DNA of 64,000 nt from Thermodesulfovibrionales bacterium (GTDB taxonomy: Bacteria; Nitrospirota; Thermodesulfovibrionia; Thermodesulfovibrionales; SM23-35): positions 128,001 to 192,000 of the forward strand of contig CAVQRT010000007.1 of the NCBI GenBank assembly GCA_963715195.1, given 5' to 3'. Below, one piece after another: positions 18,001-24,000 of this stretch (position 1 is the stretch's first letter; each line of letters starts with the position of its first letter). Made by a program: the position numbers.

Positions 18001-21000
18001 CGCCGGAGAGGCTGTTGCGAATCAGGGGAAGCACTATCGAAACGCGACCTATTGCCGGTACAAGACCACGGGGAAAGAACAGGAAAGAGGACGCACTGAT
18101 GCGGAAAGAACTGCTCCTGAATGAGAAGGAGAGGGCCGAGCACATCATGCTGATAGATCTCGAACGGAATGACCTCGGGAGGGTTTCATCGTATGGAACT
18201 GTAGGGGTCGACGAATTCATGATTACCGAGGAGTATTCGCACGTTATCCATATTGTCTCGAACATAACCGGCAATCTTGCACACGGGAAATACTGTTTCG
18301 ACGCGATACGGGCGACATTCCCCGGGGGGACAATCACCGGCGTTCCGAAAGTGAGATGCATGGAGATTATCGATGAACTCGAACCGCTGAGGCGGGGACC
18401 TTACACAGGATCGATAGGATACCTTGGCTTCTCCGGCGCTCTTGATTTCAACATCATTATCCGCACATTCATCATAAAAAATGATTCTGCATATGTCCAG
18501 GCAGGCGCGGGAATTGTTGCTGATTCAGATCCTGACAGAGAATACGATGAAACGCTGAGAAAGGCGGAGGCGCTTGTGAAGACCCTGGAGCTGGTGCAGA
18601 TTACAGAAATCTGAACCAGCGCTTTTTCGTTTTTATGTTATTGAGAGAGATCGATACATCTTTGATTCTCGCCTGCATTTCCTTCTGATCCTTTTTGAGG
18701 TCCCTTACTTCAGACTGGACGCTGTGGATCATATTTTTCAGTTCCTTGAATGTCTGGGATAAATCATGGATGCTGCTGATGATCAGTTCGAGCTTCTCTT
18801 TCGGGATGACTTGTACTTCCCGTACATCTCGTGCAGAAACTTCCCGTGTGCGCAGTGATTCTTCGTTGACCGATGTTTGAGGGGCATTGCCAGCGCCCTC
18901 GGTTATACCGTAAGGAGATTTTTGACTGCCCAATGCGGTAGATTCAAAACCCGTTGGCTCAAATCCATGAACAGCTGCAACAGGTTTCGCGGATAAGGGC
19001 TTTTCATCAACAACCGCTTCCACGAGTTCTTCCGGAGGCTGAATGGTTATGTTGTGTTTTTCCGCAATACCTTTCATTACGAGATGGGTTATCCGCTGAA
19101 ATGTTTCTTCCACCCCGGTCCCGTTCACAGCAACTGCTTCCCTGAACTCGTACCGCCCCTGTTCATTCAAATCCCTGTTCAGCTCATCAACCGTGGCGAT
19201 ATTCGGGAGATCACGTTTGTTGAACTGGAGCATAATCGGAATTTCATCAGGGTTGATATTGTTTGCACTGAGGTTCTCACGCATATTCGCAATGCTTTCC
19301 AGATTCTGCTCTTTCATTTCATGCTGAGAATCCGCCACGAAAACCACTCCGTCGGCACCCTTCAGAACCAGTTTTCTTGTGGCATTGTATCTGACCTGCC
19401 CCGGAACGGTATACAACTGAAACCGTATAGAAAAATCATTGATCTTTCCGAATTCAACAGGCAGGAAATCAAAGAAGAGCGTACGGTCGGCTTCTGTTGC
19501 AAGGGAGATGAGTTTTCCACGTTTCGACGGATCAAAAAACGAGTGTAGGTGCTGGAGGTTAGTTGTTTTACCGCTCAATCCGGGCCCGTAATAGACGATC
19601 TTGATCGTAATTTCCTTCGATGCATAATTAAAAAGTGCCATGGGTTATACTATAGCATAAACTGCATTTCTTGTCTGATGCTTTACCTTGTACATTGCTT
19701 CATCGGCAATCTTGATCAGCTCCTCTTTTGAACGTGCACTTTCCGGATACGAAGCGACGCCAAAACTTGCAGTCAGTTTGAGGGTATATCCTTCCTTCTT
19801 GAGAAAGGTATTCTGCTCGATAGACTTCCGCATCCTTTCGGCGATAAGTGCAGCGGTATTTGGAGTCGTCTGCGGAAGTACAATTACAAATTCATCTCCA
19901 CCGTACCGTGCAACGATATCGATCGACCTGAGGCTTTTCAGGAGAAGCTGGCCCATCTCAACCAGAACCTTGCTCCCGATCAGATGTCCGTACTGATCGT
20001 TGATGCGTTTGAAATAATCAATATCCATGAATATGAGGGATACCGAGGTCTTGTACCGTGTCGAACGCTGGATCTCAATCTCAATTGTCCTGTTCAGATA
20101 CCTGCTGTTGAAGAGCTTGGTGAGATCGTCTGTAAGAGCAAGTTCCGTCATTTTCTGATAGAGTGCTGTCCTCTCAATGGCAACGGCGATGAGGTCAACG
20201 AGGCGCAGGAGCAGGTCGAGGTCTTCCCTGATGAATGGATCCCCGGTTATCTTATTCACAAACTCAAGCACGCCTATCACTTCGCTCTTTATGATCATCG
20301 GAACACAGATGAGCGATTTTGTTTTAAAAAGGACGGCTTTATCGATCTTTCCCATGAACCGTTCGTCTTTTGATACATCGGGTACTACCACCGGAATACC
20401 TTCACGGGCTACCCATCCGGCAATACCTTCACCCAGTTTGAGCCTGATCTTCTGGATTTCTCGTGATTTCCGTGCATTCGTTTTTTCGAAGACCAGTTCT
20501 CCGGTCTCCTGATCAACGAGGAGCACAGACCAAGCTTCAGCCTGAATCATTGCTTTGACCTTTTCCATGATTCTGCCGAGAATTTCTCGCAGTTCCTGAG
20601 AGGATGCAAGATCACCGCTCACCTCTTTAAAGAAGGAGAGCTCCCGTTGCATTGACGAGACATCCTTCTTTAGTCTGGTGCTTTCGGTGAATAGGTTGTG
20701 CTCTCTCAGTAGCCTTTTTACGAAATAGAGAAGTTCGTTGACGCCCGGACTATAGAGGGGATAAACAAGGGGTTCCTTCAGCCATGGACCGAAACCCCTG
20801 AACGATTTGGAATCTGAGATGACAATTTTGGGGACGGATTTTGATGACTGGAGGAATGTTCTGAATGCCGGTTCACTACTCAGTTTCTTATCGGCAATCA
20901 GCATGTCGGTTTTCCCAATCAGGTTCTGTATGCCCTTGTTGAGGGAATCAACAGTGCTGACCGTATACCCTAATGATGACAGACCATCCTCATAGTCATT

Positions 21001-24000
21001 TCTGATCGCGCTTCTTCCTATCAGCAGAACCTTATGCATTTTTTCCACAGCATTTTTTGAATTTCCGCCCGCTCCCGCAGGGGCACAGGTCATTCCTTCC
21101 CACTTTTTTTGCACGCCGGACCGTCTGGGTTGACGAACCCTCACCACGATTGTAGGTGACAGGCCTCTGACGCAACGGCTCATTCCTCACCGATTCTTTC
21201 GCCTGGACCTGCATTTTGAAGAGTCTTGTGATGATCTCCGTTGATATCCGCGATGTCATTTCAGCAAAGACATCAAATGCCTCTTTCTTATACTCGACCA
21301 GCGGGTCTTTTTGTCCATACCCCCTGAGGCCAATCCCTTCTTTGAGATGATCCATGCCGAGCAAATGGTCTTTCCACTGCGAATCGATTACCTGCAGCAT
21401 AATTACTTTTTCAAGATACCGCATGAGATCATGACCGACTTCGGCTTCTTTCTGTTCATATGCATGTCTGACTGCGGAAAGCAAGAACGCCCTCAACGAT
21501 TCACGGGCATCCGGCGCAATATCCGGCGAAACAGCAAATATTCCGAAGACTGCATCCTTTATCCCTTTGATATCCCCCTCTTCAGGATGTTTTTCCTCGG
21601 GGCAATATATCAGGAGCAGTTCATCGATCACATCTTCGATCATGCCGAATAAACGTTCCCGTAGATTTGTTCCCTGAAGAATTTCTTTTCTGAAAGAATA
21701 GACTTCCGAACGCTGCTTATTCATGACATCGTCATATTCGATGAGGTGTTTCCTGATATCAAAATTATGCGCTTCGACGCGCTTCTGCGCATTCTCAATA
21801 GCCTTTGTCACCATTTTATTTTCGATCGGCATGTCTTCTTCCATACCGAATTTTTCCATGAGTCCTGAAATCCTATCTGAACCGAAGATCCGCATGAGAT
21901 CATCCTGGAGGGACAGGTAGAAGCGTGACGATCCGGGGTCACCCTGTCTCCCCGAACGGCCTCTGAGTTGATTATCGATTCGTCGTGCTTCATGTCTCTC
22001 CGTACCGAGTATATGGAACCCGCCGGCTGAGAGAACATTCTCCCGGTCTATTGCACAGATCTCTCCAGCCTTTAAAAGGGCCTGTGCCCAGTCGTCATCG
22101 GTATAGTCTTTTTTGTCACGGAGCAGTTCCCGTGCCAGACCATCAGGATTTCCGCCGAGAATGATATCAGTTCCCCGGCCGGCCATGTTCGTCGCGATGG
22201 TAACAGCTCCCTTCCTTCCTGCCTGTGCAATGATCTCGGCTTCTTTTTCATGATATTTAGCATTCAGAACAGAATGGGGTATCCCTTTTTTCTTCAAAAG
22301 GAGACTGAGCGTTTCTGATTTTTCTATCGAAATGGTTCCGACGAGAACCGGCTGCCCCTTTGCATGAAGTTCTTCGATTTCCTTGAGAACTGCATTGAAC
22401 TTGCCTTTTTCCGTTTTGTAGATCATATCAGGATAATCGCTTCTGATCATTACCTTGTTCGTCGGAACGACAACAACTTCGAGATTGTAAATCTTGGCGA
22501 ATTCCTCGGCCTCTGTATCGGCAGTTCCAGTCATTCCAGCGAGTTTGTCATACATCCTGAAATAATTTTGGAAGGTAATTGTTGCGAGTGTCTGGTTTTC
22601 ACTCTCGATCTTGACGCCTTCCTTCGCCTCGACTGCCTGATGGAGACCGTCCGACCATCGCCTTCCCGGCATAAGCCTCCCGGTAAATTCATCAACGATA
22701 ATGACCTCCCCGTCTTTCACAACATAATCAACATCCCGTTTAAACAGCGCATGGGCTTTCAATGCCTGGAGGACATGATGAACGAGATCGATGTTTGACG
22801 GATCATACAGGTTTCCGGTTCCGAGAAGCCTTTCGACCTTGCTGTTGCCTTCTTCTGTCAGAATCGCAGTTTTCGCCTTCTCGTCGATTGTATAGTCTTC
22901 GTTCAGGGTAAGTTTGGGGATAATCTTGTCTATGCGGTAATACTTATCAGTCGATTCCTCGGACGGCCCTGATATAATGAGCGGTGTTCTTGCTTCATCG
23001 ATCAGGATGCTGTCTACCTCGTCAACGATCGCGTAATGCAGTTCCTTCTGGCTGTAATCAGCGATATCATACTTCATGTTATCCCTGAGATAATCGAATC
23101 CGAACTCGTTATTGGTCCCATAGGTAATATCAGCGGCATAGGCTTCCTGCCTCGAGCAGGGCCTCAGGAAGTCAAGCCGCTTGTCTGTCGAAAAATACGA
23201 TGGATCATAGAGGAATGAAATATCGTGCTGAATAACGCCAACCGATAAACCGAGAAAGTTGTAAACGGGGCCCATCCACTGGGTGTCCCTTTTGGCAAGA
23301 TAATCATTCACCGTGACAACGTGCACCCCTTTTCCTTCGAGCGCATTCAGGAAGACGGGTAGGGTGGCAACAAGGGTCTTTCCTTCACCCGTCTTCATTT
23401 CAGCAATCCTGCCTTCGTGGAGAACAATACCGCCGAGGATCTGAACATCAAAATGCCTCATGTTCAGCTTTCGTTTCGAAACCTCACGCACTATTGCAAA
23501 AGCCTCGGGAAGCAGTTCATCAAGCATCTCACCGGCTTCGAGCCTCTTTTTGAACTCTGATGGTTTTTCTTGTAACTGACTCTCTGAAAGATCCGCCACA
23601 GTAGGTTCAAGTGCATGAACCTTTTCTACCAGAGGCCATAACCGCTTGAGTTCACGTTCATTTTTCGTACCGAACACTTTGCTGAGGATTGTTCCAATCA
23701 TAGGTTATATAATAGATTACAGGTGCTAATATTGCAAGAAAGTGACGGGAATCACAGGGGGTCTTCGGCACACGCTTCAACCGCCGTGTGTCTTCCCGGA
23801 ACCCTTGTCAGATTCAGCAGATACATGATACATTTCTGATATGTCAAAGACCGTGTATATACGTACTTTCGGATGTCAGATGAACGTTCATGATACCGAG
23901 AAGATGTTCGGGGTTTTGCTTCAGAGCGGGTACCACCGGACTGAAAGCGCGCAAACCGCTGATCTGATAATACTCAATACCTGCAGCATCAGGCAGAAGG

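Follow-up and report, generated by a model that had tools for sequence, protein, structure and literature searches.

A long MglA-type GTPase with a predicted coiled coil and a probable membrane anchor, encoded behind a diguanylate cyclase in a Nitrospirota bacterium

Characterized MglA proteins are soluble single domains that separate landmark proteins put in place and that MglB, in the model systems, turns off. A 64,000-nucleotide stretch of a Thermodesulfovibrionales genome (here called the window) encodes an MglA-type GTPase with a long C-terminal extension, directly behind a diguanylate cyclase, raising the questions of how such a switch is placed, what turns it off without MglB, and whether the cyclase is its partner. 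An earlier note on this DNA had described a second MglA with a coiled coil and a MinD-like membrane anchor, paired with the cyclase.

The GTPase and its C-terminal extension

The GTPase open reading frame was confirmed at 18601-19641 on the minus strand, encoding 346 aa. Residues 1-196 (19054..19641, minus strand) form an MglA-type G domain with P-loop GKTT, R53, T54, D58, TVPGQ82 and NKRD, in which both the P-loop pattern GxxxxGK[TS] and the G4 motif NKxD are present. The domain matched the solved M. xanthus MglA at E 1e-63, and the top 14 Foldseek matches were all MglA (E 2e-25 to 3e-21), with 54-55% identity to Myxococcus MglA, a TM score of 0.91-0.93 on the target, and the MglA fold including beta0 and the long beta2, bearing out the family assignment of the earlier note, which had given 56%. 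Group-1 MglA is defined, in the available passages of the 2014 Ras-superfamily survey, by an intrinsic arginine and a TVPGQ G3 motif (PMC4316618); here R53 lies beside the G2 threonine and the G3 motif reads TVPGQ. R53, T54, D58, TVPGQ and NKRD were invariant in all 41 long-form copies from the class. The protein has an intact group-1 MglA G domain, whose GTP binding, hydrolysis and polar switching are putative. No NCBIfam family scored above its cut-off, and in the ESM Atlas the protein fell into an unnamed, Nitrospirota-rich cluster of 668 members; relatives carry conflicting automatic labels, some of them "signal recognition particle receptor subunit beta".

Long-form proteins span 302-622 aa among the 41 class copies, and the window protein, at 346 aa, lies outside the single-domain range of 150-240 aa that the 2014 survey used for small MglA. 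The earlier remark that this survey describes no such MglA is true of its available passages, but the silence is by design, because its cut-off left out proteins longer than 240 aa (39 of 488 MglA-clade sequences; PMC4316618), so that the extended part of the family was missed. Literature searches on MglA covering paralogs, C-terminal extensions, cyclases and Nitrospirota hosts yielded no description of the long form among the matches listed. The long MglA with coiled coil and tail is apparently a form of bacterial Ras-like switch so far undescribed.

The G domain is followed by a disordered linker (residues 197-280; 18802..19053, minus strand), with AF2 pLDDT below 50 at 206-273. Its sequence is unconserved and, at a fixed cut, its length ranges from 32 to 352 residues in relatives; it had been called variable and acidic, which is right for length, but its acidity is mild here (D+E 17%; 2-35% across 41 relatives). 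The AF2 model passes from disorder at 206-273 to a single helix at 281-345, most of which forms the predicted coiled coil (residues 281-337; 18631..18801, minus strand), with about seven heptads and an I/V-rich core in which a polar Q takes up one a position. Hydrophobic residues occupy 14 of 15 a/d positions, a score reached by 0 of 5000 shuffles, and the heptad signal was at p<=0.05 in 35 of 41 relatives under an equal-step null; the coiled coil proposed earlier is thus supported. A sequence search of the PDB with this segment returned nothing below E 0.28. A RomX-like fusion was considered and set aside, RomX being a monomeric three-helix bundle (10.1101/2024.02.20.581209) and the AF2 model showing one unbroken helix.

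The last nine residues (338-346 plus stop; 18601..18630, minus strand) form a basic-aromatic tail marked by KKRWFRFL, net basic with three aromatics and a hydrophobic moment at the genome's 95th percentile; from these features it is probably a membrane anchor. The earlier note had found K/R-K/R-x-W/F-F-type tails in 12 of 12 copies. In our larger sample, a strict K/R-K/R-x-W/F-hydrophobic tail was present in 21 of 50 relatives, compared with 7 of 1747 genome ORFs, and a loose basic-plus-aromatic tail in 41 of 50, compared with 80 of 1747; nine of the 50 had neither, among them all three family f13 copies, which suggests that some lineages can do without the anchor. The likeness to MinD holds for the basic and aromatic composition and is a resemblance only: the two-turn i,i+1,i+4,i+5 pattern occurred in just 4 of 50 tails, although both MinD tails compared also lack it because of an inner W, making this test too narrow. 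The window tail follows i,i+1,i+3,i+4, and a shorter W/F-h-x-h end was found in 22 of 50 tails, this one included. Similar tails occur on a separate long-MglA branch without the coiled coil (Zixibacteria, Ignavibacteria).

Distribution of the long form and absence of mglBA

In the tree, the long MglA sits on a branch separate from the short forms, and a 98/86 branch splits the coiled-coil forms from 38 other ingroup rows; with a long-branch third MglA class as outgroup the coiled-coil forms need two changes, leaving a single origin unsupported. All 38 genomes with a short MglA also carried the long form, and 16 of the 54 long-form holders were without the short one, 13 of them having neither a short MglA nor a Roadblock match. 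The term "second MglA" thus fits every genome with a short form but understates a more widely kept paralog, which is the sole MglA in this genome. The long MglA is an old Nitrospirota paralog, and no spare copy.

No mglB was found within four genes of the GTPase or elsewhere in this genome, and no Robl_LC7 match was found in G000, G110 or G128. Roadblock genes in relatives adjoin the short form, and in six of six relative loci tested porB precedes mglBA. Here porB is followed by 3.7 kb of other genes; mglBA is deleted at its usual site, a true loss and not the assembly gap suggested earlier.

The upstream cyclase and a promoter-like site in its last codons

The gene upstream, separated from the GTPase gene by 3 nt, encodes a diguanylate cyclase of 464 aa (19645..21039, minus strand) composed of a receiver-fold domain (about 20704-21039), a helical stalk, a GAF domain (20176-20595) and a GGDEF domain (19666-20139), all on the minus strand. 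The GG[DE]EF site (GGDEF at 380-384), the metal-binding D, the substrate N and the RxxD inhibitory site (371-374) are all present, and GGDE and RxxD were invariant in 27 of 27 cyclases (F in 26). The start implied by the earlier end point of 21093 falls inside secA (21032..23701, minus strand); a start at 21039, with an 8-nt overlap at the secA stop, is most likely. The earlier GAF-GGDEF description was correct as to the catalytic part and missed the N-terminal domain, which has the (beta-alpha)5 fold and no conserved phosphorylation site: neither an acidic pair nor a Lys was found in the window cyclase's receiver fold, and the Asp varies among relatives. Pfam Response_reg was weak in 3 of 27 cyclases, the ESM Atlas gave a receiver lead for the cyclase start at or under 0.9, and a receiver profile found 20 other ORFs of the genome besides the cyclase. 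The domain is a pseudo-receiver.

Adjacency of cyclase and long MglA, previously reported as 12 of 12, held in 35 of 35 genomes of the order but in 41 of 54 of the class sample. Within the class, secA is the constant upstream neighbor of the cyclase and lies beside 30 of 41 loci; it has a leaderless promoter-like site of its own at 23709-23737. A trpE/pabB-like gene for a chorismate-binding enzyme (17094..18614, plus strand) is the convergent neighbor in 27 of 41 class loci. The 3' end of the GTPase gene overlaps the end of this gene by 14 nt.

An extended -10 promoter-like site, TG-C-TATAGT (19649..19657, minus strand), lies within the last codons of the cyclase (Y-A-I-V) and 7 nt upstream of the ATG of the GTPase gene; it is probably a leaderless promoter of the GTPase gene, the call being a consensus match. 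Of 24 cyclase genes adjacent to the GTPase gene, 19 had the codons TAT GCT ATA, compared with 1.04 expected, related genomes not being independent samples. The layout was leaderless in 28 of 41 loci, with a Shine-Dalgarno sequence in 5; none precedes the GTPase ATG in the window, and in other classes the long-MglA copies rely on Shine-Dalgarno sites. In three RNA runs, three short contigs matched the cyclase gene exactly; among those listed none was exact on the GTPase gene, and none bridged a gene border with 31 letters on each side; such contigs cannot reveal transcript starts. A promoter inside the 3' end of the cyclase gene can by itself hold the two genes together, and their adjacency seems to owe no less to it than to a partnership of the proteins, a caution against reading tight adjacency here as partnership.

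Possible roles and comparison with known systems

With moderate confidence, we favor a reading in which the long MglA is a switch that oligomerizes by itself, is tethered to the membrane, works independently of MglB and acts on type IV pili or on local c-di-GMP. The coiled coil would bundle two or three chains in parallel; single tails may be too weak, and bundled ones would bind acidic inner-membrane lipid independently of nucleotide, while the flexible linker would let the G domains reach their partners and GTP loading would, as in MglA, switch the binding of effectors. The output would most likely be control over where type IV pili are active, or over local c-di-GMP, proposed because PilM and MshEN-PilB were found in this genome and a search for flagellin in it found none. 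As a correlate PilM is uninformative: 141 of 151 genomes have it, which means that pili do not account for which of them keep the long MglA, and families f3, f6 and f7 mostly keep PilM without it. The upstream cyclase would be a plausible, non-obligate member of the circuit, its adjacency within the order probably being fixed at least partly by the GTPase promoter.

A dedicated module, in which the GTPase would bind the cyclase according to its nucleotide and place or switch c-di-GMP synthesis, or in which the receiver-like domain would replace MglB or RomR as regulator, seems unlikely to us, even though adjacency reaches beyond the class, to 7 of the 14 copies with a coiled coil from four families of other classes plus one fragment, and persists after secA loss without the buried promoter in G214, G169 and G209. 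Of the 10 class genomes in which the two genes lie apart, 7 still hold a full-length cyclase elsewhere; families f3, f6 and f7 yielded neither the long form nor a full-length cyclase; and MglA networks with receiver, pseudo-receiver and c-di-GMP proteins offer precedents in the available parts of PMC12632262, PMC11025332 and PMC11255338. On the other side, 18 genomes have a full-length cyclase and no long MglA, the 14 examined all having it behind secA (in G140 the secA-cyclase pair directly faces trpE), and in six f23 genomes of another class, of which three reach a completeness of 94% or more, the GTPase is kept but no full-length orthologue of the cyclase was found. The pairing claimed earlier thus stands as gene order but is not obligate, each gene also occurring without the other. 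Moreover, secA and trpE are comparably conserved neighbors, the buried promoter would account for persistence in the order, and none of 46 long-MglA loci outside Nitrospirota had a GGDEF neighbor. Similarly doubtful is a bolder proposal, a small-GTPase-to-c-di-GMP relay in which the tethered oligomer, free of a Roadblock GAP, would directly switch or position the cyclase, and C-terminally extended MglAs would make up a large share of the family that has been overlooked, with the 195-aa form as one branch.

Quite improbable, in our view, is that the long form belongs to the canonical polarity module as its second switch, controlled in trans by the MglB that the mglBA operon encodes, and is left as a constitutively loaded relic or scaffold where mglBA is lost. 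Short MglA is present in 38 of 54 holders, mostly beside a Roadblock gene. Position K185 is K or R in 26 of 30 long forms, residues 64/67 stay hydrophobic, and the beta2 face (F56/F57/F59), which binds MglB (PMC6785124), is invariant, so that MglB could still act on the long forms where present. Yet K181, in the pocket for the MglB Ct-helix (pocket residues as given in PMC6785124), is kept in 7 of 30 long compared with 11 of 11 short forms, and switch II carries R/K84 in all 30 long forms versus F/L/Y in short ones; catalytic residues are invariant in MglB-less genomes of four families, and no sign of decay was found in three genomes of this genus (65-66% identity). Least probable, and very unlikely, is that the tail docks other proteins or acts as a degron instead of anchoring in lipid, or that the protein serves the Sec translocon and follows secA for that reason. 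A GTPase with an acidic linker plus a membrane helix resembles FtsY. The tail is indeed short and variable in pattern, in most class loci the GTPase gene is the second one after secA, and some relatives bear the signal recognition particle label; but fold and motifs are those of MglA and not SRP-type, the automatic labels conflict with one another, and in 20 of 20 broken loci secA stays beside the cyclase rather than the GTPase.

If the favored reading of a self-anchoring switch is true, a widespread form that outlives mglBA would show that bacteria can position and regulate a Ras-like switch by a further route. Group-1 MglA of M. xanthus and Thermus thermophilus (PDB 6izw, 6h17, 3t12) shares with it the fold, R53, TVPGQ, NKRD and the beta2 phenylalanines (PMC6785124 and available passages of PMC4316618), whereas the protein encoded in the window adds 150 residues (linker, coiled coil and tail), has R84 in switch II, has no mglB beside it and occupies a branch separate from the short forms. 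The orphan MglA-family protein SofG and Bdellovibrio MglA are, according to the portions of PMC4316618 and PMC4085708 available, both group-1, uncoupled from mglB and linked to type IV pili, and the Bdellovibrio network includes c-di-GMP proteins (PMC11025332). Compared by traits only, SofG (239 aa) and Bdellovibrio MglA (197 aa) are placed by landmarks, BacP and the RomR network, whereas the long form seemingly carries its own oligomerizing anchor. MinD gains avidity through ATP-driven dimerization. Its membrane-targeting sequence shares with our tail a C-terminal basic cluster and, after it, aromatic and hydrophobic residues, no homology being implied; the tail in the long-MglA family is shorter and is preceded by a predicted constitutive coiled coil, with a hydrophobic moment of 0.75 in the window protein versus 0.63 in two MinD tails from the phylum. 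MinD 254-270 is a transplantable membrane anchor (10.1101/2023.08.29.555414). In M. xanthus, the diguanylate cyclase DmxA produces a c-di-GMP burst that governs allocation of motility and polarity proteins, as described in the available part of PMC11255338. Group-1 Rup neighborhoods, in the passages of PMC4316618 considered here, encode a Ras-like GTPase and a coiled-coil protein together, frequently joined by a c-di-GMP enzyme, but they involve another GTPase family, four separate genes and an OmpA-domain membrane protein, whereas here the predicted coiled coil is fused to the GTPase and the enzyme is a receiver-like-GAF-GGDEF protein.

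The long MglA-type GTPase and its C terminus

The 346-aa ORF of the long MglA-type GTPase was read on the minus strand of the window at 18601-19641, with a trpE-like gene convergent to it and, upstream on the same strand, a GAF-GGDEF diguanylate cyclase gene and then secA (21032-23701). A sequence search matched residues 1-190 to the solved Myxococcus MglA (E 1e-63). With the AF2 model as query, 14 MglA chains occupied the top Foldseek ranks, with 54-55% identity to M. xanthus GTP-state chains. In the model the G domain was confident, residues 206-273 were disordered and residues 281-345 formed a single helix. 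Named homologues were of Thermodesulfovibrionales and Nitrospirae origin. Alignment showed R53, T54, D58, TVPGQ and NKRD to be invariant in 41/41 class long forms, a set given as the group-1 MglA signature in the consulted passages of PMC4316618. Those passages describe no long form, as the earlier note had stated, but that survey had excluded sequences >240 aa (39/488 in the MglA clade). A literature search aimed at a coiled-coil, tailed MglA, with most subscription papers outside its reach, found no description. Elsewhere in the window (28079-29941), a 620-aa lipoprotein-like ORF of repeated 'vtYGnGiFVAVG' units is probably a beta-propeller.

Within residues 285-336 of the GTPase, 14/15 a/d positions were L, I, V, M or F, and its heptad score was reached by 0/5000 shuffles; heptads were present in 35/41 class copies at p<=0.05 against a matched null. 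The linker ranged from 32 to 352 residues among relatives (fixed cut), and no conserved linker sequence was found among those compared. The tails of 50 of the 54 class long forms were surveyed against 1747 long ORFs of the source genome. The pattern K/R-K/R-x-W/F-hydrophobic occurred in 21/50 copies versus 7/1747 ORFs, and a looser basic-plus-aromatic tail in 41/50 versus 80/1747, with neither found in 9/50 copies, including all three of family f13. The hydrophobic moment of the window tail lay at the 95th percentile. We infer, with good support from sequence, that the tail binds the membrane. Two fetched MinD proteins of the phylum (on the MinD anchor, see parts of 10.1101/2023.08.29.555414) end in a two-turn segment slightly longer than the window tail, which belongs to a shorter type present in 22/50 copies; 4/50 tails conformed to a strict two-turn rule, which both MinD tails also narrowly failed.

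The upstream cyclase and a putative buried promoter

The cyclase directly upstream had been given a boundary at 21093, a position inside secA; relatives align from ATG 21039, which is taken as the start, so that the cyclase gene and the 3' end of secA share 8 nt. Its first 112 residues were predicted to adopt a receiver-domain fold, and a profile built from this part hit 20 further ORFs in the genome (E<0.1); in the alignment, the acidic pair and lysine of receivers were absent. GGDE and RxxD were invariant in 27/27 aligned copies, in agreement with the intact GGDEF motif reported earlier. In genome G001 the cyclase (L067:5640-6542) has 300 aa and no GAF domain, and still has secA on one side and a long MglA without the tail on the other.

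That the GTPase sits directly behind the cyclase held in 35/35 order genomes but in 41/54 across the class, the two genes being one gene apart in three (deduced across the end of a contig in one case) and separate in 10. In other classes the cyclase adjoined 7/14 coiled-coil copies plus one fragment, with secA missing in three. An obligate pair is disfavoured because a full-length cyclase occurred without long MglA in 18 genomes, 20/20 fetched cyclase loci without adjacent GTPase still lay behind secA, six f23 genomes kept the GTPase with only partial cyclase matches, secA and trpE flanked similar numbers of 41 loci (30 and 27), and 0/46 long MglA loci outside Nitrospirota had a GGDEF neighbour. 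Direct control of the cyclase by the long GTPase would fit the frequent adjacency; given the cyclase-only and f23 genomes, we regard it as rather unlikely. A non-lipid or Sec-related role of the GTPase, to which the frequent secA neighbour might point, is very unlikely.

The secA-cyclase link itself was near constant in the class (23/23 loci without adjacent GTPase; window 19645-23701, L112-L131, L261-L263), and in such loci a GAF-containing gene often came next.

A consensus scan revealed an extended -10 promoter-like site, TG-C-TATAGT, at 19657-19649 on the minus strand, 7 nt before the GTPase ATG, where a Shine-Dalgarno site was not found. The element is encoded by the cyclase's last codons, Y-A-I-V. 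The Y-A-I codons were TAT GCT ATA in 19 of the 24 adjacent cyclase genes that end in these residues, compared with 1.04 expected from each gene's codon use, the kin counted not being independent; this choice held also at 58-61% GC. Among non-adjacent Y-A-I cyclases it occurred in 1/3, that of G140, a locus that has no GTPase gene. Upstream of the 41 GTPase genes the layout was leaderless in 28 cases and included a Shine-Dalgarno site in five; relocated copies had their own TTG -35 and -10. The leaderless layout also preceded most secA genes, 0 dcd genes and 35/98 control starts overall. We propose a putative promoter of the GTPase gene within the cyclase 3' end. Four copies in other classes had Shine-Dalgarno sites and no buried -10 element; the adjacency is therefore older than the promoter, and the predicted promoter would account for how it has lasted in the order but not for how it arose. 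A leaderless promoter layout of secA (window 23709-23737) was seen in most class genomes examined, and leaderless starts may be common in the class.

Distribution, relatives and loss of mglBA

In the class sample, 74/151 genomes matched: the long form was present in 54, the 195-aa form in 38, and a third MglA class of 217-236 aa was also found. All 38 genomes with the short form had the long form. The earlier note had described the long form as kept by relatives in addition to a normal MglA, which applied to 30 of the 35 holders among 78 order genomes but not to 16/54 class holders, 13 of them without a Roadblock match. It had also allowed for an assembly gap in the source genome, a reading now discarded: neither short MglA nor Roadblock was found in any of the three genomes of the genus (97.8-100% complete). 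In six relative loci tested mglBA lies 3' of porB, and in the source genome porB (contig C33) continues into an assembled 3.7-kb stretch that carries other genes, so the loss of mglBA is real.

Regulation of the long GTPase in trans by a canonical MglB is quite unlikely. In its favour, long forms retained the beta2 phenylalanines, which are MglB contacts in MglA according to the part of PMC6785124 consulted. Other positions differed (on interfaces, see parts of PMC11016934 and 10.1101/2024.02.20.581209): helix-pocket K181 was K in 7/30 long versus 11/11 short forms, and switch II position 84 was R/K in 30/30 long forms versus F, L or Y in short forms. R/K84 was shared with the MglB-free third class and absent from f23, f26 and f31 copies.

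Coiled-coil forms also occurred in four families of other Nitrospirota classes. Other phyla carried long MglAs of other kinds: the protein exceeded 240 aa in 58 of the 80 best loci among the matches listed by a genome scan, a sample biased by the long query. Some of these proteins finished in a beta-rich module, others in a different coil, and others in a linker plus basic amphipathic tail with mglB downstream of the gene. The last type, with a long linker, was seen in Zixibacteria, Ignavibacteria and Fibrobacterota (L147, L154, L162, L165, L181, L186, L192, L194, L197, L207) and formed a separate tree branch. Family f25 had MglAs of 307-308 aa with a conserved beta-rich C-terminal module (L142, L155, L217, L218, L221-L225, L230), with 44/44 genomes matched, mostly with a short form as well; similar proteins (L140-L210) included Acidobacteriota. 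A tree of 67 rows placed the short MglA of the class together with a Myxococcaceae protein. In it, the 25 coiled-coil rows were set apart from the 38 other ingroup rows by a 98/86 branch. A single origin is unsupported because the long-branch outgroup fell among the coiled-coil rows.

Proposed role and known systems

On balance we favour a role in which the coiled coil collects tails at the membrane and the G domains act as MglB-free switches. A parallel coiled coil would bring the short tails together, the gathered tails would bind membrane independently of nucleotide, and the tethered G domains would switch with GTP; by analogy, they may act on type IV pili or on local c-di-GMP. The source genome encodes PilM, four MshEN matches and 14 GGDEF-motif ORFs, and a flagellin match was not found in it. 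Two near-identical MshEN-PilB ORFs lie in tandem on its contig C2 (58630-62319), which may reflect either a duplication or an artefact of assembly.

The third MglA class lies in a conserved co-directional cluster without adjoining mglB (20/20 loci, L072-L091, e.g., L082:1-7499, L076:1-7199). In the two loci scanned, the cluster comprised a PAS kinase or receiver, receiver-HD proteins, the GTPase, a HATPase kinase and a receiver-MshEN-T2SSE ATPase. Here again an MglB-free MglA is tied to components of c-di-GMP type.

Comparable links appear in the portions consulted of work on known systems: the orphan GTPase SofG positions PilB and PilT via BacP (PMC4085708), c-di-GMP proteins belong to the Bdellovibrio MglA network (PMC11025332), pseudo-receivers are docking sites in an MglA network (PMC12632262), and DmxA links c-di-GMP with polarity proteins (PMC11255338).
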